Below, piece by piece: positions 9,893 through 64,000 of a DNA stretch of 64,000 nucleotides (positions are counted from its first letter, which is position 1; every line of letters starts with the position of its first letter). The translations under genes and the position numbers were made by a program. The notes below the pieces were generated by a model. It was not told the origin of the DNA, did not search any database, and was given only the letters and a program-made list of their open reading frames with translations. The stretch is from Patescibacteria group bacterium. GTDB lineage: Bacteria > Patescibacteriota > Microgenomatia > UBA12405. The stretch lies in the NCBI GenBank assembly GCA_013387215.1, contig WARW01000003.1, positions 10,227-74,226 on the forward strand, given 5' to 3'.

Positions 9893-10279
9893 ATGATTAA
9901 AAGGATCCTAATAATAATTTCAATAATTGTACTTTATCTAATTCCTAAAAACATTAAATATGATAAAAAAACAAACCCTTCATTGGTAAATAATTCGCAA
10001 GTGATTGTTAGCCAAACCCCCTTAATAAGCAGCAGAGGTATCAAAATAAAAAATATAAATGCCCCTGAGATAATTGGTGTTAACGGAAAAGAAAATTTCT
10101 ATCCAGACCACAGCCTACCTATTAATATAAACAATATCCTATTGATTGGCTCTGCCATATTTATTAGTTCAGGAATTGGTCTTTTAGAAATAGACAATAT
10201 GGTGGCGAGAGTGAGAAATCTTGTTAATAAAATTAACTTTAACGGCTCTTTAGTTAAATTCATTAATAGAATATTATGA
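9893..10279 (+). CDS. Small membrane-anchored protein, first gene of the glucan-synthase operon
   Basis: N-terminal TM segment. Start moved to the internal Met (MIKRIL). Stop overlaps the next gene's ATG (ATGA overlap). Confidence 0.35.
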   Translation: MIKRILIIISIIVLYLIPKNIKYDKKTNPSLVNNSQVIVSQTPLISSRGIKIKNINAPEIIGVNGKENFYPDHSLPININNILLIGSAIFISSGIGLLEIDNMVARVRNLVNKINFNGSLVKFINRIL

Positions 10280-25023: not shown

Positions 25024-25068
25024 TAGGTGGTATATTAAACTGATAATTAAAAGTAATAGGCTGTTTTA

Positions 25069-26613: not shown

Positions 26614-26654
26614 TTAGGTTAATATATAAATAATATATTGAATAAATAAATTAC

Positions 26655-28196
26655 ATGAAGATTCTTTTTTTTAGAGAAAAAAAATACCGCAAGATTATTG
26701 TGTTAGTTGGTATAGCATTAATAATTGGGTTAGTACTTGCATGGAAAAGATTGCCTGAAAAAAAGTGTGAACACTGCAATATTGTAATGGTAGATATTGA
26801 TGTCTTAAGAGCTGATGAGTTGCCTTGTTATGGATATTCCCGAAACACCACTCCCAATATTTGCCAGTTTGCCAAAAAGGCGACTATTTTTAAAGATAAT
26901 TATTCGACTTCATATTGGACTTTACCTAGTATGTTTTCAACAATTACCTCTATGCTACCCACCTTTCATAAGGTGAGAACTGAATTTATCAACAAACTGT
27001 CCCCTGATACAAAAACACTAGCCGAAGTTTTACATAGCCAGGGATATCGAACAGTATATATTGGCGACGGCCAGAATCCTGCTTTATTAACCAAAGATAA
27101 CGGAGGCTTGAGAGGTTACGATATTGTGACAAAAGAACCGATCGAAAAAGTAATTGCAGATCTTTCAAAAAGCTCACAGCCATGGTTTATCCACTATTAT
27201 TTAGTTGATTTACATATGCCTTATTTATTACCAGAAAATGTGAAACCAATGGAAGATCTGCCAGCTCCAAAAAATTTGCCAATAAACCAAACCGATTTTG
27301 ACCGCATGTTAAATACCTATTTAAAAAAGCACTATAAACAAATATTTAATGAAAAAGCGATTGGAAAATACGGCTCGGTTATTTTAGCTCCAGATAAAGC
27401 AGATGATACCAGTGTGACTAAACTTTTCAACGATTTAAGATGGACTAGTAAAAGCATGACTGAATATTTTATTGACAGCTGGAAGCCTATTTTTAATTCA
27501 TATATGGATTCATTTGATAAGAATAATCCCAATGATGTGGCATATATTAGAATGATGTACGATACAAAATTAAAACTGGCTGACGAGCAACTACAATCTC
27601 TTTTTATAAAATTAGAGACAAAACCATTTTCTGAAAATACGATCTCGATAATTATGTCAGATCATGGAGAAGCGTTTGGAGAACATGGAACTTTTTCCCA
27701 TGACAATAATAGTTATACGGAACTTTATCACACGCCGTTAATAATTCGGGCACCTGGACTGCCTGCTAAAATTGTGGACCAAACTTCAAGCAACCTAGAT
27801 ATTTTTCCAACAGTTTTAGACTTAAATGAAATAAAAAAATTAGACAGTTTTCAGGGAAAATCATTAGTGGACAGTGTCAATAAAAAAACAGAAACTAAAT
27901 CATTTAGTCTAAGCGAATATTCTGATGGTGTAATTTTACAAAACCATGACTGGCTGTATTTCTTACCATTTTGGGTTGATAAGTTTGAAAACTCAATGTT
28001 GTTTGATAGAAATAAAGATCCTAAGGAAAAAAATAATGCAGCAAAACAGAATTTAGAGTTAACTCACTTTCTTTATAAACAAGCTGATTTATTGAGATCT
28101 TATAATGGAATTATTTATAAGCCAGAGGAAATTCCAAGCGATATTAAATTAAATCCTGAAAAAATAGAGCGTCTTAAAAAAGAAGGCTATTTTTAA
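26655..28196 (+). CDS. Membrane-anchored sulfatase-fold enzyme, tandem paralog 3
   Basis: Same architecture. Has CEHC and ends in KEGYF. Confidence 0.7.
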   Translation: MKILFFREKKYRKIIVLVGIALIIGLVLAWKRLPEKKCEHCNIVMVDIDVLRADELPCYGYSRNTTPNICQFAKKATIFKDNYSTSYWTLPSMFSTITSMLPTFHKVRTEFINKLSPDTKTLAEVLHSQGYRTVYIGDGQNPALLTKDNGGLRGYDIVTKEPIEKVIADLSKSSQPWFIHYYLVDLHMPYLLPENVKPMEDLPAPKNLPINQTDFDRMLNTYLKKHYKQIFNEKAIGKYGSVILAPDKADDTSVTKLFNDLRWTSKSMTEYFIDSWKPIFNSYMDSFDKNNPNDVAYIRMMYDTKLKLADEQLQSLFIKLETKPFSENTISIIMSDHGEAFGEHGTFSHDNNSYTELYHTPLIIRAPGLPAKIVDQTSSNLDIFPTVLDLNEIKKLDSFQGKSLVDSVNKKTETKSFSLSEYSDGVILQNHDWLYFLPFWVDKFENSMLFDRNKDPKEKNNAAKQNLELTHFLYKQADLLRSYNGIIYKPEEIPSDIKLNPEKIERLKKEGYF

Positions 28197-28209
28197 ATAA
28201 ATTTGAAAG

Positions 28210-29727
28210 ATGGATAAAAAAATAAGAAATGTTTTATTGGTTTTGTTAATTTTTGTCGTGGGAACGGCAGTATTTGCATTAATAAAGACTAGGACAAAGA
28301 AAACCTGTGATCATTGCAATATTGTGATAATGGATATTGATATTTTAAGAGCTGATGAATTGCCCTGTTACGGATATTCCAGAAATACGACCCCAAATAT
28401 TTGCCAGTTTGCCAAAAAGGCAACTGTTTTTAAGGATAATTATTCAACTTCTGTTTTAACACTACCAGATATGTTTTCGATAATTACATCTCTTTATCCA
28501 ACTTTTCACCATGTGAACACAGCAACAATCGATAAACTTTCAGCAAACATCCCTACTTTGACTGAGATATTGAAAAAAGAAGGCTACAGGACAGTTTTTA
28601 TTGGAGATAGTGAATATTCTGGAACAATAAATAATCAAAACAATGGGCTAAGAGGCTTTGATATGGTGACACAAGAACCGATTGAAAAGGTAATGGAAGA
28701 ATTATCAAAAAGTTCTCAACCATGGTTTATATATTATTACTCAGGCGACTTACATATGCCTTATTTACTGCCGAAAAACACAAAACCGATGGAAAATATG
28801 CCGGCTCCAAAAAACTTACCGATAAACCAAACTGATTTTGATAAACGGTTAAATATTTATTTAAAAAATCACTACAAAGAGGTTTTTAATAAAAAAGCCA
28901 TTAAAGAATATTCTTCAATAATATTATCGCCAGATAAACCAGCAACTGAACTGTTTTATTCCTTAAAAAGTGACAATGAAAAGATGAAAGAATACTTAAT
29001 CGATGTGTGGAAACCTGAGTTTAACGTGTATATGGAATCATTTGATCAAAATAATTCTTCAGAGGTAAGTTATGTCCGAATGATTTATGATACAAAGTTA
29101 AATTTAGTTGATAATAAACTTGAAAAGGTGCTTAAAAAACTGGACACAAAAGAATCAATAAAAAATACGATTACTTTAATTTCATCAAACCACGGAGAAA
29201 GCTTTGGAGAACATGGAAATTTTTCCCATAATTTTAGTCCTCACTCAGAACTTTATTACACTCCATTAATAATTAAAGCGCCACAACTTAAGGCAAAACA
29301 AATCCAAAATACTTCAAGTAATATGGATATCCTACCCACAATTTTGGATTTAACTGGAATAAAAAAGTTAGACAGTTTTCAAGGAAACTCATTGATCGCT
29401 AGTATTAATCAAAAAGAAAACTTAGAAAATTTTGCCATGAGTGAATATTGGGGAAATATAATTTTACAAAATAAAAAATGGCTATATTTTTTACCAGCAG
29501 AAGCTAAATACATTGAGCAATCAATGCTTTTTAATAAAGAGAATGATAAAGATGAAAATACCAATGTGTCGATGCAAAATACAGAACTAGTAAAGATGCT
29601 TTACAAAAGGGCGGATTTGCTACGTTCTTATAGTGGAATTAATTATAAAATAGAAACTATTCCTACTAATGAAATAAAAATAGATCCTGAAAAAATTAAG
29701 AGGATTCAAAAAGAAGGATATTTTTAA
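28210..29727 (+). CDS. Membrane-anchored sulfatase-fold enzyme, tandem paralog 4
   Basis: Same architecture, with SNHGESFGEHG. Has CDHC and ends in KEGYF. Confidence 0.7.
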   Translation: MDKKIRNVLLVLLIFVVGTAVFALIKTRTKKTCDHCNIVIMDIDILRADELPCYGYSRNTTPNICQFAKKATVFKDNYSTSVLTLPDMFSIITSLYPTFHHVNTATIDKLSANIPTLTEILKKEGYRTVFIGDSEYSGTINNQNNGLRGFDMVTQEPIEKVMEELSKSSQPWFIYYYSGDLHMPYLLPKNTKPMENMPAPKNLPINQTDFDKRLNIYLKNHYKEVFNKKAIKEYSSIILSPDKPATELFYSLKSDNEKMKEYLIDVWKPEFNVYMESFDQNNSSEVSYVRMIYDTKLNLVDNKLEKVLKKLDTKESIKNTITLISSNHGESFGEHGNFSHNFSPHSELYYTPLIIKAPQLKAKQIQNTSSNMDILPTILDLTGIKKLDSFQGNSLIASINQKENLENFAMSEYWGNIILQNKKWLYFLPAEAKYIEQSMLFNKENDKDENTNVSMQNTELVKMLYKRADLLRSYSGINYKIETIPTNEIKIDPEKIKRIQKEGYF

Positions 29728-31292
29728 TGAAAGGCTTTTTAAGTAGAAAAAAACTTTTGTTGCTAGCATTATTGATTTTATTGTCGATAGTAATTGGTTT
29801 TGGATCGTGGACTTTTTATAAAAAAACAGAAAATAAGTCCGAAAAAAAGTGCGAGAATTGCAACATAATGCTTATTGATATTGATATTTTAAGAGGTGAT
29901 GAATTATCCTGTTTGGGATATTCCCGAAATACCACCCCAAACATTTGTGAATTTGCCAAAAATGGAGCTGTTTTTAAGGATAATTATTCGACTTCATATT
30001 GGACTCTTCCAAGTATATTTTCAACCATGACTTCTTTGTATCCGACTTTTCATGGGATGCAAAATGCAGGCAAGGATATTCTCTCTCCAAACATTACAAC
30101 TTTGGCTGAGGTGTTACATAAAAAAGGATATATGACGGTTATGGTAAACGGAAATAAAGATACAATGCAAATGCTGTTTGGCGATAATGAGGGTTTGAGA
30201 GGCTTTGAAATGGTTACAGCTGATCCGGTTGAAAAAGTTATAGATGACTTATCAAAAGACAATAGACCTTGGTTTATTTATTACTATAACTCAGAGCTGC
30301 ACTTTCCATATTTATTGCCAGAAAACACAAAACCGATGGAAGATTTGCCAGCTCCAAAAAATTTACCAATAAACCAAACTGATTTTGATACTTTACTAAA
30401 TAAATATTTAAAGACTCATTATACAGAAATATTTAAGCCAAAGATAATTGATAAGTACGGTTCGATTATTTTAGGGTCAAATAAAGAAGATGATATGGGT
30501 ATGGTGAAAATGTTTAATACTTTAAAAGCGGATCCTTCAAAAGTAAGCGAATATTTTATTAATGACTGGAATGCAAATTACCAAACTTACATGGAGTCGT
30601 TTGATCAAAATAATCCATCTGACGTTAAATATGTGCGAATGCTTTACGATACAAAATTAAAATTACTTGATAATAAAATGGGAAGTGTTTTACAAAAATT
30701 AAATTCGAAACAGCTTTCAGAAAATACAATCACAGTTATTACTTCAGACCATGGAGAAAATTTTGGAGAACATGGTTTTTTTACCCATATTGCCGATTTT
30801 CATTCCGAAGTGTTTTATATTCCATTAATTATTAAATCACCCAACATTTTACCGACAACAATCGAGCAAACAACAAGTAATATTGACATATTCCCTACTC
30901 TTTTAGATTTAACTGGCATCAATAGCCCGGGCGGACTACAAGGGATTTCTTTAGTTCCGTATATTAATAATCAGCACACAGAAAAACAATCATTTGCTAT
31001 GAGTGAATATTGGGGAAATGTGATTTTAGAGAATCATGATTGGCTGTATTTTTTACCTAAAGATGAGCAAGGTGTAGTCAAACCCACGTTCTATGACAGA
31101 ATTAAAGATCCGGCAGAAAAAGAAAATGTCATAGATAAATATCCTGAGATGGTAAATTCCCTTTATAAACAAGCCAGCCTGCTTCGCTCTTATAATGTTT
31201 TCTATGAAAATAAACCAATAGTAAAACCTGATGTAATCAAAAACATTGATAAAGTAAAATTAGATCGATTAAGGAAAGAAGGTTATTTTTAA
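29727..31292 (+). CDS. Membrane-anchored sulfatase-fold enzyme, tandem paralog 5
   Basis: Same architecture. Has CENC and ends in KEGYF. Confidence 0.7.
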   Translation: MKGFLSRKKLLLLALLILLSIVIGFGSWTFYKKTENKSEKKCENCNIMLIDIDILRGDELSCLGYSRNTTPNICEFAKNGAVFKDNYSTSYWTLPSIFSTMTSLYPTFHGMQNAGKDILSPNITTLAEVLHKKGYMTVMVNGNKDTMQMLFGDNEGLRGFEMVTADPVEKVIDDLSKDNRPWFIYYYNSELHFPYLLPENTKPMEDLPAPKNLPINQTDFDTLLNKYLKTHYTEIFKPKIIDKYGSIILGSNKEDDMGMVKMFNTLKADPSKVSEYFINDWNANYQTYMESFDQNNPSDVKYVRMLYDTKLKLLDNKMGSVLQKLNSKQLSENTITVITSDHGENFGEHGFFTHIADFHSEVFYIPLIIKSPNILPTTIEQTTSNIDIFPTLLDLTGINSPGGLQGISLVPYINNQHTEKQSFAMSEYWGNVILENHDWLYFLPKDEQGVVKPTFYDRIKDPAEKENVIDKYPEMVNSLYKQASLLRSYNVFYENKPIVKPDVIKNIDKVKLDRLRKEGYF

Positions 31293-31298
31293 AAACAG

Positions 31299-32831
31299 AT
31301 GAAAAAAAAGATAAGTTTATTATTAATTGGATTAATGGTTTTTTTTACAATCGCTGCTTTTTTAATAAAAAAAGAAGTTATTAATAAACCTAAAATCTGC
31401 AAGCATTGCAATATCATGCTTATTGATGTGGATGTATTGAGAGGAGATGAATTGCCCTGCTATGGATATTCCCGAAACACCACCCCAAACATTTGTGAAT
31501 TTGCCAAAAATGGAGCTGTTTTTAAGGATAATTATTCGAACTCAATAATGACGCTGCCAAGTATGTTTTCCACTATCACTTCGCTTTATTTAACTTTTCA
31601 TAAAGTAGAAGTAAGTTTTGCTGATAGACTTTCGATAAAAATACCAACTTTAGCAGAGACATTACAAAAAGAAGGATATAGAACTGTATTTATAGGCAAA
31701 AGCGATGACCCTTCCACACTAAACCAAGAAAATGGAGGTTTACGAGGTTATGATTTAGTGACTCAAGATTCAATCGATAAGGTTGTGGACGATTTATCAA
31801 AAAGTTCTCAACCTTGGTTTGTGCACTACTATAATTCAGATTTACATATGCCCTATTTATTGTATGATGGCATGAAACCAATGGAAAATTTGCCAGCTCC
31901 GAAAAATATGCCAATCAGTTATTCGGATTTCGATAAACTGTTAAATACTTATTTAAAAAAACATTCAACTGAAATATTTAATAAAAAAGCAATTGAGGAA
32001 TATTCATCAACAATATTGGCACCAGATAAAGAAAACGATGTGAGCGTGACCCAGCTTTTTTATACCCTTCGCAATGATCCTAATAAAATGAAAAAATATT
32101 TAATTGATGGCTGGAAACCGATTTTTGATTCTTATATGGGATCGTTTGATAAAAATAATGAAAAAGATTTGGCTTATTTAAGGATGATGTATGATTCTAA
32201 TCTTAATTTGGTGGACAAAAAGTTGGAGCCAGTTTTGAATAAATTAAAATCAAAATTATTAGCAAAAAACACTATAAGTATATTTATGTCAGACCATGGC
32301 GAAGCTTTTGGTGAACACGGAACTTTTACTCACGACTACAACCATCACACAGAGCTATTTTATACACCATTAATAATTAAAAGTCCTAGTTTTTCAGGAA
32401 AAGTGATTGACCAAACTACAAGTAATATCGATATTTTTCCAACTATTCTCGAACTTGCAGGAATTAGAGACCCAGGTGTTTTACAAGGACAATCGTTGGT
32501 TCCGCATATGAAGGGAGTGGCCGAAAATTCAAGACCATTTGCCATAAGTGAATATTACAATGGCACGGTTTTACAAAACCATAACTGGTTTTATTATTTA
32601 CTGAACAGTGAAAATATTGAAAATTCGATACTTTATGACAAAATAAATGATCCTTTGGAAAAGGATAATGTATCTTTAAAACATCCAGACTTAACAATGA
32701 ATCTTTTCAAACAAGCAGATATTTTGCGTGTATATAATAGAAATTATAATAAGGAAGAGATTCTAAGATCCGAAAAGACTGGATTAGATCAGACAAAAAT
32801 AAAAAGGATTCAAAAAGAAGGATATTTTTAA
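31299..32831 (+). CDS. Membrane-anchored sulfatase-fold enzyme, tandem paralog 6
   Basis: Same architecture. Has CKHC and ends in KEGYF. Confidence 0.7.
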   Translation: MKKKISLLLIGLMVFFTIAAFLIKKEVINKPKICKHCNIMLIDVDVLRGDELPCYGYSRNTTPNICEFAKNGAVFKDNYSNSIMTLPSMFSTITSLYLTFHKVEVSFADRLSIKIPTLAETLQKEGYRTVFIGKSDDPSTLNQENGGLRGYDLVTQDSIDKVVDDLSKSSQPWFVHYYNSDLHMPYLLYDGMKPMENLPAPKNMPISYSDFDKLLNTYLKKHSTEIFNKKAIEEYSSTILAPDKENDVSVTQLFYTLRNDPNKMKKYLIDGWKPIFDSYMGSFDKNNEKDLAYLRMMYDSNLNLVDKKLEPVLNKLKSKLLAKNTISIFMSDHGEAFGEHGTFTHDYNHHTELFYTPLIIKSPSFSGKVIDQTTSNIDIFPTILELAGIRDPGVLQGQSLVPHMKGVAENSRPFAISEYYNGTVLQNHNWFYYLLNSENIENSILYDKINDPLEKDNVSLKHPDLTMNLFKQADILRVYNRNYNKEEILRSEKTGLDQTKIKRIQKEGYF

Positions 32832-40728: not shown

Positions 40729-41688
40729 ATGGGAAATATGCCAGAGACAAAAGAAATTTTTGACACAATTATTGTGGGATCAGGTCCAGCCGGATTAACA
40801 GCTGCAATTTACAATATTAGAGCAGCTTTAAAAACCGTGGTAATTGCGGGAAATCAGCCAGGCGGACAATTAACCATTACCACTTATGTTGATAATTATC
40901 CTGGTTTTCCAACCGGAATCGGCGGAGTTAAATTGATGATGGATATGCAGGCTCAGGTGAAAAATTTAGGCGGTGAAATTCGCCAAGGATTAGTAAAAGA
41001 AATTCAAAAGAAAGACGGTGTGTTTGAAGTATGTTTTAATGATGAGTCAATTCTTAAAGCCAAATCGGTGATTGTGACAACCGGCGCCAGCGCTAAATGG
41101 TTGGGACTTCCAAACGAAAAAGAATTAGTAGGTAGAGGTGTCAGCGGATGTGCAACTTGTGATGGAATGTTTTTTAAAGATAAAATTGTGGCGGTGGTTG
41201 GCGGTGGAGACACGGCTTGCGAAGATGCAGTGTTTTTAACAAGATTTGCCAATAAAGTTATTTTGATTCATCGACGAGACAAATTCCGAGCTGCACCAAT
41301 GGAGCAAAGCAAAGTGTTTGAAAATAATAAAATTGAAACTTTATGGAATACTGAAGTTGAAGAGATTATAGGAAAAGATAAACTAGAAGCCATTAAAATA
41401 ATTAATAATCAAACCAAAGAAGAAAAAGAAATTCAAATTAATGGACTATTTATGGCTATAGGCCATGATCCGGCTACTCAATTTATTAAAGATTTGGTTG
41501 AATTAAAAGAAACTGGGCAAGTTGTTGTGGGTAAAAATCAAAACTATCCAACCATGACTAACGTTGAAGGTTTATTTGCAGCTGGTGATTGTGCTGATGA
41601 TGTTTACAGACAAGCAATAGTGGCAGCGGGAAATGGCTGCAAAGCAGCCATTGATGCTCAACATTGGCTGGAAAATCAAGAAGCTTAA
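40729..41688 (+). CDS. trxB: Thioredoxin reductase
   Basis: FAD-binding GSGPAGLTAA, redox-active CATCDG, and an NADPH-binding GGGDTA motif. Confidence 0.85.
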   Translation: MGNMPETKEIFDTIIVGSGPAGLTAAIYNIRAALKTVVIAGNQPGGQLTITTYVDNYPGFPTGIGGVKLMMDMQAQVKNLGGEIRQGLVKEIQKKDGVFEVCFNDESILKAKSVIVTTGASAKWLGLPNEKELVGRGVSGCATCDGMFFKDKIVAVVGGGDTACEDAVFLTRFANKVILIHRRDKFRAAPMEQSKVFENNKIETLWNTEVEEIIGKDKLEAIKIINNQTKEEKEIQINGLFMAIGHDPATQFIKDLVELKETGQVVVGKNQNYPTMTNVEGLFAAGDCADDVYRQAIVAAGNGCKAAIDAQHWLENQEA

Positions 41689-42893
41689 ATCAATTTTTTG
41701 ATTGATTTAATAAAGTTGTCTTTAGAAAAACAATCGGCTCGATTAATACAATTTTGAGATATTTTTTGAGAATCTTTTGGAGTTTTAGTAAGTTTTTCCA
41801 ATTCTTGGATTGCCCTAGCACAAGATTCCGGAGTTAATTTATCAAATAAAACTCCGGTTTTACCATCAATAACAGTTTCAGCAGTTCCACCACTTTTAAA
41901 ACCAACAACAGGACAACCAAAAGACATGGCCTCTACCGGAACCATGCCAAAATCTTCATTGTCGGAACAAAACAGAAAAGCTTTGGCTTGGAAATATAGT
42001 TTTTCTTTTTGTTCTTGATTTACTTCACCTAAAAATTCAATGGTGGGGCCAGAGATATTTTTGAGTTCATCCATAAACCCAGCAAAATCACGGCCAAATA
42101 TTTTTAATTTAAGATTCAATTGGTTGCAGGCTTTAATGGCAACATCATAACGCTTAGCTCTAGCTAGTCTGCCGCCTGCTAAAAAGTATGACTCAGATAA
42201 AATTTGGCGGTGCTCGCTACCTTCGGGCTCGACTTCGTTTCGCGTTCGCTGTGCTCCTGAAATTTTATTCTTCGTATTAACGAGCTTCGCCATTTTTGGA
42301 ATTTCTATAGGAGGATTTATAACTATACTGTTTTTACGGTAAAATTTTTCAATGCGGGCGGCAGTGGTTTGAGAATTGGCAATAAATTGATCGACGTTTT
42401 GGGCAAATCTAAAATCTAAAAATCTTAAAAAGTGATTTAAGAATTGAACTATAAAATAAATAAATTTGTTTTTGGTTAAAACTCTGGCAGTGGGCAGACC
42501 ATATAAATAACGAGGCGGAGTGTGGCAATAACAAATTAATTTAGCTTGTTTTTTGTTTAAAGCATTTGGAAAATAGGCACCAGTGGCGGAACTGATAATC
42601 AAGTCGTAATCAGAAAAATCAAAAGAATAAAAAGCTAGCGGCGAAAATAAACGAAGCGGACTGATTATTTTTCTGGCAAAAGGTATAAATTTAAAAAAGC
42701 TTTGATGAATACGACCCGCCCATTTTTTTTGAAGACGATTTTGATGAGGACCTAGAAATTTTGGGCAATAAAGTGAAGTGTAAATCGGAGCATCGGGAAA
42801 AATATCGGAAAAAGTTTCTAGAACTGACTCGGCTCCCCCAAATTCTTTTATATAATCATGAACTAGGGCTATTTTGAGTTTAGTTTGGGTCAT
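41685..42893 (-). CDS. GT4-family glycosyltransferase
   Basis: C-terminal EDFGMVPVEAMSFGCPVV (E-x7-E-like GT4 motif). Confidence 0.75.
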   Translation of the reverse strand: MTQTKLKIALVHDYIKEFGGAESVLETFSDIFPDAPIYTSLYCPKFLGPHQNRLQKKWAGRIHQSFFKFIPFARKIISPLRLFSPLAFYSFDFSDYDLIISSATGAYFPNALNKKQAKLICYCHTPPRYLYGLPTARVLTKNKFIYFIVQFLNHFLRFLDFRFAQNVDQFIANSQTTAARIEKFYRKNSIVINPPIEIPKMAKLVNTKNKISGAQRTRNEVEPEGSEHRQILSESYFLAGGRLARAKRYDVAIKACNQLNLKLKIFGRDFAGFMDELKNISGPTIEFLGEVNQEQKEKLYFQAKAFLFCSDNEDFGMVPVEAMSFGCPVVGFKSGGTAETVIDGKTGVLFDKLTPESCARAIQELEKLTKTPKDSQKISQNCINRADCFSKDNFIKSIKKLI

Positions 42894-43876: not shown

Positions 43877-44782
43877 ATGGAACAACACGCGATTCCACAG
43901 CAGATTTCGTCCTACGAATTTAAATTAGTGGGAGAAATGACGCTAAAACAGTTTATTAAGGCAGCGGCGGGAATTATCCTGGCACTATTAATTAACGCAA
44001 CCAAATTAATTATTATTGTTAAGTGGCCTTTAATGGCAGTTTGCGCTGGAGGCGGATTACTTTTAGCTTTTGTTCCTTTTGAAGACAGACCGCTGGAAAC
44101 CTGGGCAGTAGCTTTTATTAAATCGATTTATTCCCCGACTGTTTATATTTATAAAAAAAGAGCAAGTAAAAATTGGCTAGAAATTGATTTGAATAATATT
44201 ACAGATACAGATGGTGCTGAAACAAACGATGACGAAGAAGTACTAGTGGTTAAAGATAAAACTAAAGTAAGAGAATTTATTCAATCACTGCCTTCAGTTA
44301 AAAGAGAAGTAAAAGAAGAAGTTGAAGAAGTAAAAGAAGTGAAAAAAGTACAAGTACCAGTGAGCAATCCTCAAGTGCAAACCCAAACAGAGGTGGTTAA
44401 AAATATACAAAAGACTGAGGATTGGCATGATCAAAAAACTAATTTGAATTTAAAAACCGAAAAACTCGAAGCGACAGGAAAGGCAAATTTTGGAGCAATA
44501 CCAATGCCTGATATTCCAGAAGTTCCAAATATAGTGGTAGGAATGGCGATGGATAGCAATGGTAAAATTGTGGACGGAGTGATTATTGAAATCCAAGATG
44601 AACATGGTAATCCTTCAAGAGTATTAAAAACCAATTCTTTAGGACAATTTAAAACTTCAACTCCATTAGCTAATGGAAGATATTTATTAGTTTGTGAAAA
44701 AGAAAATTTCAGTTTTGATAGGGTCAATATTGATGTTAAGGGTGAGATTATTAAACCGATAAGGATTATTGCCAATAATTAA
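43877..44782 (+). CDS. T4SS/conjugation-associated membrane protein with a C-terminal beta-sandwich (CarboxypepD_reg-like) domain
   Basis: 2-3 TM helices near the N-terminus, a KE-rich linker, and a C-terminal GKIVDGVIIEIQDEHGNPSRVLKTNSLGQFK fold-like segment. Lies directly upstream of the VirB4 gene. Confidence 0.35.
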   Translation: MEQHAIPQQISSYEFKLVGEMTLKQFIKAAAGIILALLINATKLIIIVKWPLMAVCAGGGLLLAFVPFEDRPLETWAVAFIKSIYSPTVYIYKKRASKNWLEIDLNNITDTDGAETNDDEEVLVVKDKTKVREFIQSLPSVKREVKEEVEEVKEVKKVQVPVSNPQVQTQTEVVKNIQKTEDWHDQKTNLNLKTEKLEATGKANFGAIPMPDIPEVPNIVVGMAMDSNGKIVDGVIIEIQDEHGNPSRVLKTNSLGQFKTSTPLANGRYLLVCEKENFSFDRVNIDVKGEIIKPIRIIANN

Positions 44783-44816
44783 TATATGATTAAAATATTA
44801 GTTATAAAAAAATAGT

Positions 44817-45524
44817 ATGGCTACCGATCCACTTAAAATTGCCATTAAAGGTACAACTCAAGACCATTTGCCCATCGAAGATGTGGTTGATGGAGTGGTG
44901 ATTTTGAAAGACGGATCATGTGCGATGGTAATGCAGATATCTTCCGTCAATTTTGATTTGTTATCAGAAAAGGAACAATCGGCTTTGGTTTTTGCTTATG
45001 GCGGAATTTTAAATTCTTTGAACTTTCCAATTCAAATAATTATCAGATCAAACGCTAAAGATGTGTCGGTTTATCTTAATAATTTGAAAGACGCCGAAGA
45101 AAAACAAAGCAATTCTCTTTTGAAACAAAGAATTCAACTATACCGAAAGTTTGTTGAAGAAACGGTTAAAAAAAATGATGTGTTATCAAAATCTTTTTAT
45201 GTGGTGGCTCATTTTTCTGCGTTGGAACTGGGAATAAAAAATGCCGGCAAGCAAACATTGAGCACTATTCTGCCTCCTTTAGGAAAATCGCGTTCAACAG
45301 AATTACCATTTTCCAAAGATTATATTCTAGATAAAGCAAAAGCTAGTTTGGAACCGAAAAGAGATCATTTAATGAGATTGTTTTCCCGATTAGGATTGGA
45401 AATTAAACAATTAAACACCAAAGAATTAATCGAACTGTATTATAAAATTTATAATGAAGAAACGGCTGTAAATCAGAAACTGCAAACACTGAATTACAAT
45501 GCACCAATTGTTACCACTAAATAA
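44817..45524 (+). CDS. Hypothetical protein in the T4SS cluster
   Basis: 235-aa ORF immediately upstream of the VirB4-like ATPase. No clear motif. Confidence 0.4.
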   Translation: MATDPLKIAIKGTTQDHLPIEDVVDGVVILKDGSCAMVMQISSVNFDLLSEKEQSALVFAYGGILNSLNFPIQIIIRSNAKDVSVYLNNLKDAEEKQSNSLLKQRIQLYRKFVEETVKKNDVLSKSFYVVAHFSALELGIKNAGKQTLSTILPPLGKSRSTELPFSKDYILDKAKASLEPKRDHLMRLFSRLGLEIKQLNTKELIELYYKIYNEETAVNQKLQTLNYNAPIVTTK

Positions 45525-45525
45525 A

Positions 45526-48213
45526 ATGAGTATTTTAGATAAATTAATTAAAAAACCGGCAGCTGCACCAAGTACTACTCCAAGTACAACCCAAACTGAT
45601 CCCGTTGAAGAGACCAAACCTTTTACTGAAGGATTAGTGTCGACAAAAGATATTATTGCCCCATCTGCCTTAGAAGTTGATTTTAATCATTTAAGAATTG
45701 ATAATAAATATTACCGAACTTTGTTTGTGGCTGGATATCCAAGATTTGTGGGTATTAATTGGTTGTCGTCTTTGATTAACTTTGATGCTTCTTTGAATAT
45801 TGCTATGTATGTTTATCCAACAGACGGCAAGGCAATTTTGGATGATTTGAGGCGAAAAGTAACGGAAATGGAGGCAGAAATCAGCACTGACATTCAAAGA
45901 GGTAGAGTGGTTAATCCAGCAACACAGGCTAAACTTGAAGATGCATTAAATTTGCAAGCAGATTTAGTAAAAGGTGAAGAAAGATTTTTTCAATTTGGAC
46001 TTTATATTACGATTACTTCAGATTCAAAAGAAGAATTAAACAGAATCAATAAAAATTTGGAAGCAGCTTTGGGATCACTTTTAATTGTGAGCAAAAAAGC
46101 TACTTTGCAAATGGAAGAAGGATTTGTGACCACTCTCCCCGCTTGCGACGATAAACTGCAAATTACCCGAAACATGGATACGACTTCACTAGCCACTACT
46201 TTTCCATTTGTGTCTTCTGATTTATCAGATGATAAAGGAATAATGTATGGAATTAATGCCCACAACGGGTCTTTAGTTATCTTCGACCGATTCTCGATGC
46301 AAAACTACAATTCAGTAGTATTTGCAACTGCCGGTGCCGGAAAGTCTTACATGATAAAACTTGAGGCATTAAGATCTTTAATGCTTGGTTCAGAAATAAT
46401 TGTAATTGATCCAGAAAACGAATATAGAGATTTGTGTGAAGCAGTTGGCGGACAATATATTGCCTTTGGATATGGTGAAGTTTCAAAAATTAATCCTTTT
46501 GATTTATCTTTGGTAGAAGAAGATGGTGAAAATGCTTTAAACAGCAAAGTTTTAAGTCTTCATAAACTTTTCAAAGTGATGATTGGAGCTATGGATCCAA
46601 TTGAAGAATCTATCCTAGATAAGGCAATTATGGAAGCTTATAAAGCTAAGGGAGTGACACCAGATCCAGAAACACAAAAGAGAGAACCCCCGTTGATTGA
46701 AGATTTATATAAAGCATTAATCGGGATGGAAGAACAAAAAGCCCAAAGTTTGGCTGCCCGATTTGAAAAATTTATTAAAGGTTCGTTTGCTGGAATATTT
46801 AATCAAAAGACAACAGTTAATTTGACTAATCCGTTTGTGGTTTTTGGAATTAAAAATCTTGAAGATGCTTTAAGACCAGTAGCTATGCAAATTATTTTGG
46901 ATTACATTTGGACAGTAGTTAAAGCAACTTTAAAAAGAAGAATCTTAGTGGTCGATGAAGCTTGGTATTTGATGCAATATGATGATTCAGCAGAGTTTTT
47001 AAGAGGAATAGTAAAAAGAGGCCGAAAATATTATTTAGGAGTAACAACAATTACCCAAGATGTGGATGATTTTTTGAAAACTAGTTATGGAAAGGAAATT
47101 GTGACTAACAGTGCTATCCAAATTCTTTTAAAACAACATAGTGCGGCAATTGATCAAATCGGTGAAGTTTTTTATTTATCGGAAGGAGAAAAACAATTAT
47201 TATTAAGCGCAGATAAAGGTGAAGGAATATTTTTTGCCGGTCAAAATCATGTGGCTATTCGAGTTATCTCTTCCGATGACGAACATCAATTAATTACTTC
47301 CAACCCAGAAGAGGTTTTAAAAATTAAAAAAACCCAAGCACAAGCTCAAGATTTACCCAAGCCTCCAGTGTTTCCTCCAATAAAAGAAAGTCCTGTGGTT
47401 AATGCTCAGCCAATCAATAATCCAACTCCGATAAATAAACCAATAATTGAAACTAAACCGGAAATTCCTATGACTCCTCCAACATTAGTTGTTGAAAAGG
47501 TAGTGGAAATTAAAATGCCAGAAATTAAGACTCAAGAGACAAATAATGTCAATCCAAGCCCGGTAATAAATAATCCGACACCAGTAAGTCCAACTGTTTT
47601 ACAAACTCCAGCAAGCAATTCTGGGAATCGACCAGAAGTGGTAGTTTTAGATTTACAACAAAGAATTAATGAACTTGAGGAAAAAGAAAAAATAGAATTA
47701 AAAGAACATCAAGAAAAAGAAGAACAAATTAAGCAGGCAAACCAAACACCGGTGTTTACAAAAGAAGGTGAATTGCCAAAGTATCAAGATATATTTAAAA
47801 CACCAAATCCAGTTCAAACAAACCAACTTCCTCCTCTGCCAAAATTAGACCAACCAGTAAATAATAATGTGATTTTAAAAACGGAAACAATTGGAAACTC
47901 AACAAATAATTCTCAATCAAATAATTTGGAAAACAAAAAACCAATCTTTTTGAATCAAGTTGAACAAAAAATTCCGCAGCCACCACAACTGGCCAAAAAA
48001 ATTGTGCCAGAATTTGTGGCGCCAACTCAAAAAACTCCAAGCCAATCTCCTACTCCGACAAGTGAAATAAAACTGCCACCAGTAAAAGCAGCTTCGATTA
48101 ATCCAATACAAACTCCGATTGCAAAAGTAGAAACTCCTAGCACTAATACAGACAAACCTAAAGAAGAGAAAAAACTGAATTATGATGATATTTTTGGTGA
48201 CGGGATTGTGTAA
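45526..48213 (+). CDS. VirB4/TrbE/ConE-family conjugation ATPase with a roughly 300-aa Pro/Thr/Gln/Asn-rich disordered C-terminal tail
   Basis: Walker A FATAGAGKSY, Walker B ILVVDEAWYL, VirB4-like N-terminal domain (YRTLFVAGYPRFVGINWLSSL). Low-complexity tail from about aa 610. Start chosen at the Met just after the upstream stop. Confidence 0.8.
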   Translation: MSILDKLIKKPAAAPSTTPSTTQTDPVEETKPFTEGLVSTKDIIAPSALEVDFNHLRIDNKYYRTLFVAGYPRFVGINWLSSLINFDASLNIAMYVYPTDGKAILDDLRRKVTEMEAEISTDIQRGRVVNPATQAKLEDALNLQADLVKGEERFFQFGLYITITSDSKEELNRINKNLEAALGSLLIVSKKATLQMEEGFVTTLPACDDKLQITRNMDTTSLATTFPFVSSDLSDDKGIMYGINAHNGSLVIFDRFSMQNYNSVVFATAGAGKSYMIKLEALRSLMLGSEIIVIDPENEYRDLCEAVGGQYIAFGYGEVSKINPFDLSLVEEDGENALNSKVLSLHKLFKVMIGAMDPIEESILDKAIMEAYKAKGVTPDPETQKREPPLIEDLYKALIGMEEQKAQSLAARFEKFIKGSFAGIFNQKTTVNLTNPFVVFGIKNLEDALRPVAMQIILDYIWTVVKATLKRRILVVDEAWYLMQYDDSAEFLRGIVKRGRKYYLGVTTITQDVDDFLKTSYGKEIVTNSAIQILLKQHSAAIDQIGEVFYLSEGEKQLLLSADKGEGIFFAGQNHVAIRVISSDDEHQLITSNPEEVLKIKKTQAQAQDLPKPPVFPPIKESPVVNAQPINNPTPINKPIIETKPEIPMTPPTLVVEKVVEIKMPEIKTQETNNVNPSPVINNPTPVSPTVLQTPASNSGNRPEVVVLDLQQRINELEEKEKIELKEHQEKEEQIKQANQTPVFTKEGELPKYQDIFKTPNPVQTNQLPPLPKLDQPVNNNVILKTETIGNSTNNSQSNNLENKKPIFLNQVEQKIPQPPQLAKKIVPEFVAPTQKTPSQSPTPTSEIKLPPVKAASINPIQTPIAKVETPSTNTDKPKEEKKLNYDDIFGDGIV

Positions 48214-48316
48214 GTTTTAGGTCTGAATGATTGATATAATTTGTATAAACAGTGCCTTGTTAATATCTAACACTGTTTTTTACGCTTTTGTAAATTTTAT
48301 TTATATCTTGTAATAA

Positions 48317-51300
48317 ATGCCAGATCTAGCGACTGCTCAGAAAAATCCGATTGAGAAAAAAATAGACTACTTAAATGCGAGTGAAATTTCGACTCCTGAA
48401 GAAGCTATTGAGGTATTAAGAGAACTAAGAAATATTGGTGGAAAATTAATTAAAGGAAGTGTTCTTGAAAAAAGTATTGAGAATTATTTAGGCGAACTTG
48501 AGGTTTATGATGTGCCAAGCGTTATTGAAGCATTGAAAGACTTTGAGACAAAGACGGATGATAATTTTGATAAAGCGGCAGTTCCAGTCGCAAAAATTGA
48601 TGAATTAGTAGACGAATATGAAGAATATCTAGAAAAAGGATTTGACAGTGAAGAGGCTGCAGATAAAATTTATAAAGAAAATAAGGGATTAATTTCAAGA
48701 AAAACTATTGATAGTTTTGTTCAAAGACAACGAGAAATTTTTGAAAACAATTTAAAGAAAGTAAATGAAACTAAAAAACCTTTAACTCAGGAAAAATTAA
48801 TCGATTTAAATAAATACCGACAAGAAAGTGAAGCGACAACTCAAAACATAAAGACAGGTTTTAATGAAAAAGATAATAATTCCGAAAATAATGTAATTGA
48901 TTTAGGGAAATATAAGCAAAATACGATTGATGATTTTTATGATTTAAAACCAGACGTAAAAGAAAATAAAAAATATGATTTAAAACCAGAAAATAAAGCG
49001 AAAAAAGTTATTGATTTGGACTCATATATTCAAGGAAAAGAAGAGGTTGAAGATATAACTACTAATACTGATGCAGGAAAATATGAATCAAATAAAAATA
49101 AAGTAGAAGAACAAGTTGAAATAATCAGTAAAGAACAATTTAAATTTGAGAATAAAGTTGAAGAAGAATTATTAAAGTATCAAAAACAAGACATAAAATC
49201 AGACAGCAGTGTTGATGAAAAAGTAAAAGAAGAATTAAAAAAAGTATCAAGAGATATTTCAAAACAAACATTCGAATCTGTAGTTTTAAACGAAAAAGAT
49301 GTGGATATAGAAACAGTTGATAGAGTTGTAGAAAAGATAAGCGATGAATTGCCTTACTCCATAATTAAACCAGAAGAAAAAGAAACATTTAAAGCTAATT
49401 TAAAAGAAGAAATTGAAGTCGTTACCGCTAATATTGCCGTTGAAGCAAAAACTGAGGAAATTAGCCAGAAAATAATTTTAGAATTAAAGAAAGACGAAAG
49501 AACCGAGGAATTAATTAAGAGAAACAGCGACGTTGTTGAAAATAAAATCGAGACAGCAGTTAAGAATGTAATTTTAGGCGAAGAGGTTGTTACTAAAACA
49601 GAGCAAATAAATGACTTAAATTCCGAAATTATTAGGATTCTAAAAGAAGAAGATGTGAGCGACTTTAAACACGAAGCTCCAGTAAATAAAACCGCCATAA
49701 AAACAATCGATTTAGAATTAAATAAATGGGTAGAAACAAATAGAGAAACGGTTCAAGATTTTAGAGGCGATCATCTTGAAAAAATAATTGATCTTCAAAT
49801 CCAAAAAGAAAATCCATATTTAAGCGAAGAACAAAAAGTCCAAGTCCAAAAATATAAACAATTAATCAGAGAAATATATTATTCCGACAGCACACTTGAA
49901 AAATATAAAAATGATGCCGTAAATAATGCCTCTAAAACTAATAGTCCAGGACAAATAAATCAAGCTTGGACCGATTTAAAAGGAATAACAAATTTACTTA
50001 AAAAAAAGCCTGGGGATGTTAAAGATATTTTTAAAAGATATGATGACATTAAAAAGGGACTTGGCAATATTAATTTACCTTTTGATATTAAAGAATGCCG
50101 ATCTTTTGAGAATATTGCAAATGTTTTAACTAATCCCCAAATTAACGTTTTATTTGGAAAAGCGCAAAAATACATTACTTATCTAGAAAAATTAGATAGC
50201 TTTTCAGGAGGACTTTTGGGAAAAGCCGGAATGAAGGGGGCTAATTATATTATAGAGAGAATTGGCAACCAGGCAGTAAAGGCTTTTGCAGAAAATTCAT
50301 TAAAAATAATTGCAGAAAAAGGTTTACAGGAAGGTTTTGGAATTGTATTGAGAGGAATTTTAAGTGGTGGTGTGCAAGCTGGTGCTAGCGCAGCCGCCAG
50401 CGGAGCTGCAGTAGCAGGTGGAGCAGCGGCAACAGGAGTAGCAGTAGTCGGAGGGGCGGCTTTATCAGCAACAGGAGTTGGAGCAATTGTAGTAGCGGCA
50501 GCGACAGTTTTAGGAGTAGTAAAAAAAGTTGTTAATAAAATAAAAGATGGGATTTTAAAATCTTTAGGGATTGAGTCTGGTTTATTTGGAGCTAAACAGT
50601 TTTTTCAGGATAATTTTGGTAAAGGTTTAGGTGGAATATTAGGTAAAGGAGTAGAGTTAGTAGAATTATTAGTAGTAGGAACCATTGCTTTGGTTGCAGC
50701 TGTTTCAGCAGCAGCAGTCGGCCCAATAATAATTGCCTTTTTTGTGGGATTATTTGGATATCAAATGCTTCAAGGACACACTGTTTCCAGTTTAGTTCCA
50801 CCAACCACACTCCAAGACAGCACAGATATAAATGAGGAAGGCGGACAAGTTTTTGATCCAGGCAGTGTTCATAGTTTAAATTTAAGTTTTAATGTGCCAG
50901 TGGTAGGCGCTGAGTTTACTCGAGCGGATTTAGTGAATGTGGCCCAATCATTATTGGGATTACCTTATTTTTGGGGCGGAAAATATCCTCATAAAGGAGC
51001 AAACCCTAGCTGGGGGCAATTAAAAACAGTAACTGCTGATAAGAGTTGGTCAACCGGACTCCAAATTCCATCAGGATTAGATTGTTCTGGATTCGTTGAT
51101 TGGGCTTATTTTCAATTAACAGGCAGACAAATTTCAAACGGCGGCGGATCGGCAGATATCTGCAATTTAGCGGCACCAGTGGCTAGAGCAAGCTTAAAAG
51201 CTGGAGATGTGGGTTGTATGGATGGCCATGTAGCATTGTGTATTGGAACTGATCCGACAGATGGAGAGCCATTATTTATCCAAGCTGTTGGTCAAAGATA

Positions 51301-51430
51301 TAGAGATAATTCAAAAGGGTTGGTGGCTGGTCAAGTTTTGATATTAAAAGAAGGGATAGAATATAATGGTTATGTAGGACCTACTTTTACTAGTTACGGA
51401 CGACCAAATGTTACTTTTAAGGATAATTGA
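48317..51430 (+). CDS. Giant T4SS-associated cell-wall hydrolase (CwlT/PrgK-like): charged repetitive N-terminal region, Gly/Ala-rich TM segments, C-terminal NlpC/P60 peptidase domain
   Basis: C-terminal GLDCSGFVDWAYFQ...GDVGCMDGHVALCIG gives the NlpC/P60 Cys...His arrangement. Gly/Ala-rich hydrophobic block at about aa 620-790. Internal repeats (VIDLGKYKQ / VIDLDSYIQ; YDLKPD / YDLKPE). Confidence 0.7.
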   Translation: MPDLATAQKNPIEKKIDYLNASEISTPEEAIEVLRELRNIGGKLIKGSVLEKSIENYLGELEVYDVPSVIEALKDFETKTDDNFDKAAVPVAKIDELVDEYEEYLEKGFDSEEAADKIYKENKGLISRKTIDSFVQRQREIFENNLKKVNETKKPLTQEKLIDLNKYRQESEATTQNIKTGFNEKDNNSENNVIDLGKYKQNTIDDFYDLKPDVKENKKYDLKPENKAKKVIDLDSYIQGKEEVEDITTNTDAGKYESNKNKVEEQVEIISKEQFKFENKVEEELLKYQKQDIKSDSSVDEKVKEELKKVSRDISKQTFESVVLNEKDVDIETVDRVVEKISDELPYSIIKPEEKETFKANLKEEIEVVTANIAVEAKTEEISQKIILELKKDERTEELIKRNSDVVENKIETAVKNVILGEEVVTKTEQINDLNSEIIRILKEEDVSDFKHEAPVNKTAIKTIDLELNKWVETNRETVQDFRGDHLEKIIDLQIQKENPYLSEEQKVQVQKYKQLIREIYYSDSTLEKYKNDAVNNASKTNSPGQINQAWTDLKGITNLLKKKPGDVKDIFKRYDDIKKGLGNINLPFDIKECRSFENIANVLTNPQINVLFGKAQKYITYLEKLDSFSGGLLGKAGMKGANYIIERIGNQAVKAFAENSLKIIAEKGLQEGFGIVLRGILSGGVQAGASAAASGAAVAGGAAATGVAVVGGAALSATGVGAIVVAAATVLGVVKKVVNKIKDGILKSLGIESGLFGAKQFFQDNFGKGLGGILGKGVELVELLVVGTIALVAAVSAAAVGPIIIAFFVGLFGYQMLQGHTVSSLVPPTTLQDSTDINEEGGQVFDPGSVHSLNLSFNVPVVGAEFTRADLVNVAQSLLGLPYFWGGKYPHKGANPSWGQLKTVTADKSWSTGLQIPSGLDCSGFVDWAYFQLTGRQISNGGGSADICNLAAPVARASLKAGDVGCMDGHVALCIGTDPTDGEPLFIQAVGQRYRDNSKGLVAGQVLILKEGIEYNGYVGPTFTSYGRPNVTFKDN

Positions 51431-59805: not shown

Positions 59806-59813
59806 TGTTTTAT

Positions 59814-59905
59814 ATTTAGCTTTGTAATTTGCAGTGCTCGAGCCTTCGTAATATCCACTCAGATACTGCGCGCTTAAATAACAAAGCTAAATTTATTCCA
59901 TTTTT
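59814..59905 (+). terminator. Long nested hairpin (17-bp outer stem with 1 mismatch, GCAGT/ACTGC inner stem) followed by a T8 run; probable operon terminator
   Basis: Left arm ATTTAGCTTTGTAATTT 59814-59830, right arm AAATAACAAAGCTAAAT 59876-59892, T-run at 59902-59909. Confidence 0.4.
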
Positions 59906-59911
59906 TTTAGA

Positions 59912-59971
59912 TCGTGATTTGCGGTACTCACGCGTTCACTTTGTTCACATGATTCCGTTCCTAAATCACGA
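59912..59971. ncRNA. Structured intergenic element, copy A: 9-bp stem enclosing the conserved core CTCACGCGTT-N9-TCACATGATT
   Basis: Stem TCGTGATTT 59912-59920 pairs with AAATCACGA 59963-59971. The core is shared with copy B at 63383..63478. Confidence 0.35.
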
Positions 59972-60318
59972 CCTAAAATAATATACATTTGATATATTCC
60001 CCTAGCTAAAATAATGACGTTTTTACAACGTGAAAACCCCTAAAATCAGTACTGTGCTGACATTTTTTTGATAGAAAATTTTTTCTTTTCAAGATTCCCC
60101 TCTCGGAACCAGGTTCGATTTTGAAAAATACCATCTGAACTCGTTTGTATTTACATTAAAAATACTTACATATATCTATAATCACGTCATTACATTTTTT
60201 CACGTTACTCCTTATAATTAATTAGCTTGGTTATGACTATTTTTGGCAAGTAATAACCGCATAATAACCGATTTATTACCGTAAGAAAATAGTAAACATT
60301 TAAACTAAAATAAGTAGT

Positions 60319-63372: not shown

Positions 63373-63382
63373 ATTTTGTTTC

Positions 63383-63478
63383 GTTTTGAGATTTCCGGTG
63401 TCCTCTAAAAGGACTCGCTTCGCAGCGCTCACGCGTTTCGCTTCGCTCACATGATTGTGCTCCGTAGAATCTCAAAAC
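63383..63478. ncRNA. Structured intergenic element, copy B: 11-bp stem enclosing the conserved core CTCACGCGTT-N10-TCACATGATT
   Basis: Stem GTTTTGAGATT 63383-63393 pairs with AATCTCAAAAC 63468-63478. The outer-stem sequence differs from copy A while the core is conserved. Inner small hairpin GTCCTCTAAAAGGAC. Confidence 0.35.
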
Positions 63479-63545
63479 TTCACTTTATATCGTGCTAAAA
63501 ATTTCTTTTGCTTCGCCAGCATTATTTGATTGATAAAATAGGGAT

Positions 63546-63860: not shown

Positions 63861-63920
63861 GCTACGAATTTTTTTCTCCCTCAATGCGTTACCGCGTTGA
63901 AACTCGTAAAAAATTGTAGC
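63861..63920. ncRNA. Third hairpin element (GCTACGAATTTTTT / AAAAAATTGTAGC stem) enclosing GCGTT/CCGCGTT motifs
   Basis: Same architecture as copies A and B, and shares the CGCGTT core fragment. Lies at the window edge. Confidence 0.25.
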
Positions 63921-64000
63921 CTTAAATTTACTTCGAGAATAGAATTAATTGCGGAATAAAATCGGTTAATATACGGTAATATTTTTATCAGTTAGCTATA

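Follow-up and report, generated by a model that had tools for sequence, protein, structure and literature searches.

Palindromic elements around a replication origin

The window, by which we mean the whole stretch of 64,000 nucleotides that was analysed, has a GC content of 32% and tightly packed genes, and it spans the surroundings of the replication origin in a CPR bacterium. In this region dnaN and dnaA lie on the minus strand and are followed on the plus strand by rnpA, yidD, yidC, jag/khpB, a Wzy-like gene, and the genes for a flippase, a DUF4012 protein of 1017 aa and RNHCP. The nearest named relatives of the DUF4012 protein, and of a GT4 glycosyltransferase that is also encoded in the window, belong to Candidatus Shapirobacteria, and both proteins have NCBI matches of 100% identity. 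Strand compositional skew in the window is strong. A scan of the window for tRNA and tmRNA found none, and neither transposase, integrase, RAYT nor Nop domain was seen among its proteins or in the gene tables of the neighbourhoods around the related loci described below. Two other gene arrangements are recorded here in their own right. At 22032-23420 (minus strand) and 23494-32831 (plus strand) there are six head-to-tail paralogous genes of the sulfatase family, each encoding about 510 aa and sharing 64–79% DNA identity, with a seventh adjoining on the opposite strand. A cluster at 43877-51430 (PrgI-like, TraC-like, TraG/VirB4-like ATPase and NlpC/P60 genes) adjoins dnaN, is also kept beside dnaN in the relatives L015, L017, L019 and L021, and is partly present on the shorter contig of L023 (the ATPase, the TraC-like gene and a gene in the PrgI position); it has the appearance of a chromosomal apparatus near the origin, either type IV secretion-like or for competence.

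The original prediction held that two intergenic elements, here called E1 and E2, share a conserved core enclosed by inverted repeats, and this was confirmed. The pattern CTCACGCGTT-N8/9-TCACATGATT has two exact matches in the window, both on the plus strand, against 0.00 expected from 100 shuffles, and each match lies within a real inverted repeat, of 19 nt with 89% identity in E1 and of 11 nt with 100% identity in E2 (Table 1); each core 10-mer taken singly is not over-represented in the window. Several details had to be corrected. The spacer within the core, given before as N9-10, is N8 in E1 and N9 in E2. The enclosing stems TCGTGATTT and TTGAGATTT, previously described as completely different, are identical at seven of nine positions and differ by two compensatory pairs (C-G to T-A and T-A to A-T), and the likeness extends leftward through ATTTsCGGT and rightward through CCGT..AAT, so that the whole units are homologous. 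E2 is a long variant with one more hairpin inside it, GTCCTCTAAAAGGAC (63400-63414), and with TCGCTTCGC partly duplicated. Three phased TCAC words, which had been proposed as a protein-recognition feature of the core, occur in E1 only, the other copies carrying CGCTTCGC or other linkers, and the protein-site idea rests on one copy.

Two covariance models were built, R1 from eight copies and R2 from 13 copies, and together they find exactly four copies in the window, namely H0, E1, E2 and a fourth copy that lies away from the regions singled out in the original prediction. H0 had been described as a terminator-like hairpin at 59814-59892 and is instead a diverged member of the family; it stands in tandem with E1 at a distance of 6 nt, and its interior TTCGTAATATCCACTCAGATACTGCGCGC matches the TTCGTAAAATCCACTCACATGATTGCGCGC of a Woesebacteria copy. 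H0 and E1 appear to have arisen by tandem duplication on the spot and to have diverged later with compensation. The four window copies are diverged and come from different subfamilies that are common to several genomes. All the hairpins that lie between genes, H3 included, come after stop codons of plus strand genes and fold with z-scores of -2.8 to -7.7 relative to shuffles.

Table 1. Hairpins of the window and the gene that hosts one of them. For copies of the family the strand is that of the covariance model, which is also the better-folding strand; the genes flanking E1 are on the plus strand.
Feature	Position	Strand	Description
GT4 glycosyltransferase gene	41685-42893	-	Pfam Glyco_transf_4 and Glycos_transf_1; hosts copy 4
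Copy 4	42185-42280	-	in frame within the GT4 gene; R2 42.2 bits
H0	59811-59895	-	diverged member; R1 60.1 bits
E1	59902-59981	-	arms 59902-59920/59963-59981, core 59927-59954; R1 85 bits, R2 80.6 bits
E2	63383-63478	-	arms 63383-63393/63468-63478, core 63428-63456; R2 62.1 bits
H3	63861-63920		AT-rich stem, T-run/A-run, GC-richer interior; same general build, other family

H3 had been grouped with these elements for its long-stem architecture, and neither R1 nor R2 detects it. Two sets of relatives with the same gene order, L012 (DUF4012 identity 70%) and L013/L014 (62%), allow its own distribution to be followed: a homologue with two compensatory stem changes is found in L012 (14925-14990) and is absent from L013, and the interior of this second family reads CTCCCTCAATGCGTyACCGCGTTGAAACTC. 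This suggests that the genome carries several families of such hairpins. The spacer between the flippase and DUF4012 genes also holds blocks that are kept in the relatives, namely TTGATATATTCCCCTAGCTAAAATAA, a promoter-like block and phased CGGTWA boxes. The block GTTATTACATTTTTCACGTTAC at 60182-60218 is kept in L012 and L013, contains a sigma-70-like match (ATTACA-18-TATAAT) and is likely the promoter of the DUF4012 gene. Three CGG(T/A)(T/A)A half-sites spaced by about 11 nt, for example TTGCGGAATAAAATCGGTTAATATACGGTAAT, occur upstream of the DUF4012 gene and upstream of the gene after RNHCP, which is FtsH in the relatives (window 63950-63980 on the plus strand and 60250-60285 in reverse; L012 9937-9965 and 15001-15030; L013 9935-9962 and 14958-14988). 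They are kept in both relatives, the surrounding spacer not being conserved, and their arrangement is probably that of an operator for some regulator.

Distribution, fold and covariation of the family

Exact-core scans of species-representative genomes and of JGI metagenomes, one scan each, returned 11 loci, among which L002 to L007 and L009 to L011 show the build of the family. Once duplicates are merged these represent six distinct places (L002 and L007 belong to one Woesebacteria MAG, L004, L005 and L011 are grouped, and L003, L006, L009 and L010 are separate), and they share the order of variable AT-rich stem, TTTT, sCGGTG, core, GCGCKCSG, AAAA and matching stem. The remaining two loci, L001 and L008, contain both core 10-mers and no hairpin and were treated as possible chance matches, about eight of which are estimated for 20 fixed bases, seven allowed spacings and two strands over 596 Gb. 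In L001 (Omnitrophota MAG JBLMYT010000004.1, contig end, 4048-4338) a 43-nt tandem repeat contains CTCACGCGTT-N12-TCACATGATT with no enclosing hairpin, and may be due to chance or to distant relation. The core scan of a viral contig collection gave 0 matches.

The same architecture is thus present in at least six other Microgenomates genomes, including Woesebacteria, Shapirobacteria and metagenome contigs, and the covariance models recognised further copies in the Shapirobacteria loci L017, L019, L021 and L023, which were reached through protein homologues. With seven further public loci and strong covariation, the core is far from being confined to two occurrences in one genome, and the expectation of a family that has a conserved core and covarying enclosing stems and extends beyond this genome was borne out. 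Copy number looks low: the 64-kb window has four copies, and a Woesebacteria contig of 315 kb has a single exact core. Shared ends occur only within subfamilies, such as TTACTCGTAAC...GTTACTTCGTAA in L002, L003, L006 and copy 4, and the apical 10-mers remain identical between genomes that have diverged too far for their neutral intergenic DNA to be aligned. A search of the whole window against Rfam at gathering thresholds gave no match, and a permissive search at the elements returned nothing relevant, only eukaryotic miRNA hairpin models (at best mir-737 on both strands of E1, with 32.5 and 22.9 bits against a gathering threshold of 60, and mir-19 at H0, with 18.8 bits against 50). In our literature searches no account of such elements turned up for CPR or Microgenomates. 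The structured repeat is real and apparently undescribed, a palindromic family of about 90 bases in Microgenomates/CPR.

The full unit measures about 85–100 nt. In model orientation and going inward from the feet, a short outer helix comes first; it is followed by a 3x2 internal loop, asymmetric and reading GAA/GA in some copies and GCA/AA in others, an AT-rich helix of 11–13 bp that ends in a U-run paired with an A-run, a GC-rich helix of 5–6 bp with a fixed C.A or A.A mismatch, and an apex in which the conserved AAUCAUGUGAG ... ACGCGUGAGCAC surround a variable linker of 8–12 nt; the outer helix and the 3x2 loop are described from full-length copies. It is the apex that is conserved, and the arms vary with compensation. 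The asymmetries of loop and mismatch matter only in a folded single strand.

Covariation among the 13 copies is strong: eight pairs are changed on both sides (six of eight modelled pairs in the AT-rich helix and two of four in the GC-rich helix), paired cells make up 93.8%, compared with 77.8% in shuffles, and the observed level is reached by none of 500 shuffles. When the partners are slid along the alignment, pairing falls to 35–58%. In every copy the strand opposite to the one in which the elements were originally described folds better, by 2–10 kcal/mol, and this advantage stems from a 7-bp helix P3, UCAUGUG/CGCGUGA, with two G.U pairs. P3 could not be retained as an established part of the structure, since its pairs do not covary and variant copies have it broken. 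In P1/P2, G.U exceeds A.C by 6:1 on the model strand, an asymmetry by which selection and strand mutational skew are not separable. The original prediction had placed a functional RNA or protein site in opposition to a simple repeat; in that form the opposition is not supported, and the elements behave as a dispersed palindromic repeat.

Genomic contexts and a copy inside a glycosyltransferase gene

Copies border unrelated housekeeping genes, namely those for two NTP transferases, FtsH/DUF6909, an amine oxidase (oxidoreductase), SpoU and MurB/RuvC, and also the flippase and DUF4012 genes. Their intergenic contexts are tandem, convergent (L003) or divergent (L010, L017b), and both orientations occur. 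The model strand is the sense strand in the tandem contexts of L002, L004 and L009 and in GT4, and it is antisense to both flanking genes at the three intergenic window copies; no consistent rule of orientation relative to genes or replication was found. A consensus terminator scan detected none at any copy, and on both strands a T-run comes before the stem and an A-run after it, so that no U-tract trails the hairpin.

Copies are gained and lost between close relatives. H0, E1 and E2 are missing in the syntenic L012 to L014, whose flippase–DUF4012 spacers score at most 13 bits with filters off. E2 sits at the junction where L012 (13082-14605) and L013 (13103-14650) carry a gene of 507–515 aa between DUF4012 and RNHCP, which is missing in the window (63373-63545). 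The spacer between FtsH and DUF6909 contains a copy in L003 and is only 20 nt long in L013, and the L017 copy at 12205-12298, beside a thioredoxin reductase gene, is absent at that site in the window, L015, L021 and L023. No direct repeat is visible at the feet of the 13 copies, where the palindrome often runs into the flanks and the ends are not sharp.

The fourth window copy is found within the GT4 glycosyltransferase gene, where its 96 nt (32 codons) are stop-free and in frame and encode about residues 205–237, the linker between two Rossmann-like domains. As in all intragenic copies the two conserved 10-mer boxes are missing from it, and by itself it folds into a weak hairpin. In an alignment of 17 GT4 homologues, related inserts occupy the exact site in six and are lacking in five, the homologue of the L013 genome being one of the latter. 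Those of L017, L019, L021 and L023 form long hairpins with differing arms that are recognised by the models, and those of the window and L015 are eroding. Across the six orthologous copies a helix of 16 pairs is maintained: seven of the pairs have changed on both sides, and pairing holds in 91.7% of cells, a level reached by none of 500 shuffles. An AlphaFold model of the protein has a mean pLDDT of 82 and drops below 50 exactly at residues 202–232, so that the insert is predicted to be a tolerated, probably disordered linker.

In the roughly 330 kb to which the models were applied, GT4 was the one coding site that came up. Comparison of the three open-frame translations of the canonical core with proteins gave no candidates, and the only sequence returned by the insert-peptide search, P0219, was rejected as an unrelated, low-complexity, GC-rich tandem-repeat ORF of 99 nt (L020); such searches are insensitive at so short a peptide length. 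Another short GC-rich hairpin repeat is present in L019 at 10040-10085 (CTCCCTTGTCAAGGGGAG and GCCCGAAGGGC), translated as SPLSRG..ARRAEGF. It recurs in the GT4 homologues P0102, P0106, P0113, P0126, P0129, P0192 and P0195, where it forms apparent N-terminal extensions of GT4 and, in some lineages, an insert at the same linker site. The GT4 linker seems to be a repeated landing place, or else the one place where inserts are tolerated.

Possible nature of the hairpins and known palindromic repeats

The explanation we favor, with about an even chance of being correct, is that the copies are a small non-autonomous palindromic repeat of Microgenomates, similar to REP, RPE or MITE elements and recognised as a folded single strand. 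We call their behavior repeat-like because there are several diverged copies including a tandem pair, in both orientations and mixed contexts, beside unrelated neighbors and absent in syntenic relatives. A trans-acting enzyme that reads the folded single strand would copy or move the unit, and it would recognise it by the asymmetric loop, the fixed mismatch and the conserved apex. If it is the fold that is recognised, pairing and apex would be conserved for that reason while the sequence of the stem drifts. Inserts would be tolerated where they are harmless, as in short intergenic spaces or in a flexible protein linker, and once inserted they might secondarily act as RNA-stabilising hairpins. 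Local tandem duplication, as in H0 and E1, would be a second route of multiplication. Against the mobile repeat it has to be said that no mobilising gene was seen in the window or in the neighbourhoods read, that no target-site duplication or conserved termini were seen, that copy number looks low with one coding site, and that no clean empty site can be aligned in the relatives because their intergenic DNA is too diverged. A conserved apex with covarying stems could reflect either a requirement of mobilisation or a function for the host. Since the hairpin is kept inside a gene, the option of a host function stays alive, and compensatory retention in the gene across six lineages fits it at least as well as selfish persistence.

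One form of that option is a host cis-acting structured RNA, a hairpin of the transcript that would be bound or processed by a host factor in 3'-end protection, processing or translation pausing, with the apical core as the protein site. The strong covariation of the stems, coding copies included, speaks for it, as do the apical 10-mers that stay identical where neutral intergenic DNA cannot be aligned, the better folding of the model strand in every copy, the excess of G.U over A.C on that strand, and its agreement with the sense strand in three tandem contexts and in GT4. Each of the strand arguments meets a difficulty: the three intergenic window copies are antisense to both neighbors, the helix P3 that favors the strand has no covariation and is broken in variants, and the G.U excess could derive from the strong compositional skew of the strands. 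Copies also lie between divergent gene starts, close relatives have the same sites without a copy, the neighboring genes are unrelated, and the intragenic copies entirely lack the two conserved boxes, and on this balance we consider the host RNA doubtful. On a further, tentative reading, which we hold to be improbable, the hairpin would be more than a tolerated passenger, namely a Microgenomates-specific single-strand (RNA or ssDNA) recognition module whose pairing is kept by selection even in coding arms; its apex, asymmetric loop and fixed mismatch would be read by some machine, either a hairpin-specific recombinase of a new mobilisation system or an RNA-binding factor for which the hairpin is a portable regulatory or processing signal.

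The remaining alternatives, like the attC reading discussed below, each failed on the defining features of the system concerned. Transcription terminators, possibly bidirectional and similar by common descent or chance, would account for long stable hairpins that follow the stop codons of plus strand genes in H0, E1, E2 and H3, and they are nevertheless a very unlikely explanation, given that no U-tract trails the stem on either strand, that the consensus scan finds none, that copies lie between divergent genes and inside an intact gene, and that an identical core in seven genomes is not chance. The earlier idea of a double-stranded DNA site, where a regulator or nucleoid protein would read the repeated CTCAC/TCAC words, finds some encouragement in two (G)CTCAC words about 17–21 nt apart in most copies; we consider it very improbable indeed, for the third TCAC word is specific to E1, the intragenic members do not have the words, there is no fixed distance to promoters, and stem covariation means that intrastrand pairing matters, which a duplex site would not need. 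The last candidate is a stand-alone unit of a TIGR-Tas-like or snoRNA-like guide RNA system. TIGR stem-loop arrays have been reported in CPR bacteria and consist of variable spacers flanked by box C (CCA) and box D (UG), in tandem arrays beside a Nop-domain Tas gene (PMC12045711). The build is superficially the same, with variable palindromic stems that enclose two segments of about 10 nt and a variable linker in a CPR host. The enclosed segments, however, are variable in TIGR and invariant across genomes in the Microgenomates family, which has neither a conserved CCA...UG frame nor an array, its units being dispersed with at most two in tandem, and a Nop-domain protein is lacking both from the window and from the gene tables of related loci, so that this candidate can be given hardly any credence.

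The family bears on several questions. CPR genomes are tiny and tightly packed, and the general view is that they contain little repetitive DNA. A repeat family found across Shapirobacteria and Woesebacteria would be a new marker of CPR genome dynamics, since close relatives differ by its gain and loss and it was once built into a protein. Selection on nucleic-acid structure can also be weighed here against coding constraint in a clean natural test, since the six orthologous copies keep the 16-bp helix inside the gene by means of compensatory substitutions. If a dedicated enzyme reads the apex, a new hairpin-directed system of mobilisation or regulation would be at hand. Annotators should be aware that such hairpins make predicted open reading frames too long and give CPR proteins inserts and N-terminal extensions that are apparent ones.

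The family was compared with known systems. The attC sites of integrons have conserved structure and variable sequence, forming imperfect hairpins 3' of genes in which unpaired bases matter for the choice of strand; R''/R' boxes (RYYYAAC ... GTTRRRY) mark the foot of the hairpin, and an intI gene with a cassette array goes with them. The Microgenomates family is alike in its conserved structure, variable sequence and imperfect hairpins downstream of genes. We rejected the attC reading: the stem feet do not fit these boxes (E2 starts with GTTTTGA and ends with TCAAAAC, the reverse arrangement), no integrase domain is found in the window, the apex is conserved and not variable, and some copies lie within a gene or separate divergent genes. 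REP and REPIN elements, which are mobilised by RAYT (Y1 HUH) transposases, are imperfect palindromes outside genes; they fold into hairpins, frequently lie directly behind a gene, point either way and may be clustered, and asymmetries in their hairpins are expected to matter for single-strand recognition. The likeness lies in extragenic hairpin palindromes that occur in either orientation, sometimes clustered and often just 3' of genes. REPINs, in contrast, conserve the stem and vary the loop, where the Microgenomates family does the reverse, and there is no RAYT gene in the window or the fetched neighbourhoods and copy number appears low.

MITEs such as Correia, ERIC and BOX/RUP/SPRITE are small, non-coding, dispersed hairpins that are sometimes nested or in tandem and occasionally intragenic in frame (PMC10969869). 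Small dispersed hairpins, a tandem pair and one intragenic in-frame copy are likewise seen here. The outer arms are inverted repeats as well, but their sequence varies by copy, no related autonomous insertion sequence was seen, and the conserved part is the apex and not the ends, which sets the family apart from MITEs and REPINs alike. The RPEs (Rickettsia palindromic elements) are short palindromic repeats of a reduced-genome bacterium, found in intergenic spaces and in frame within genes, where a peptide is added and the protein is kept; no transposase is known for them (PMC10969869). The Microgenomates family is likewise palindromic, lies between genes and in frame within a gene (at the GT4 linker) and is not known to have an associated transposase, and an in-frame, stop-free insert that is absent from some orthologues, as expected of an RPE, is what GT4 presents, with six homologues carrying it and five without. 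The two differ in that they have no sequence relation and belong to different phyla, in that RPEs enter many unrelated genes whereas one coding site is found here, and in that in the Microgenomates family the apex is conserved while the stems drift with compensation.
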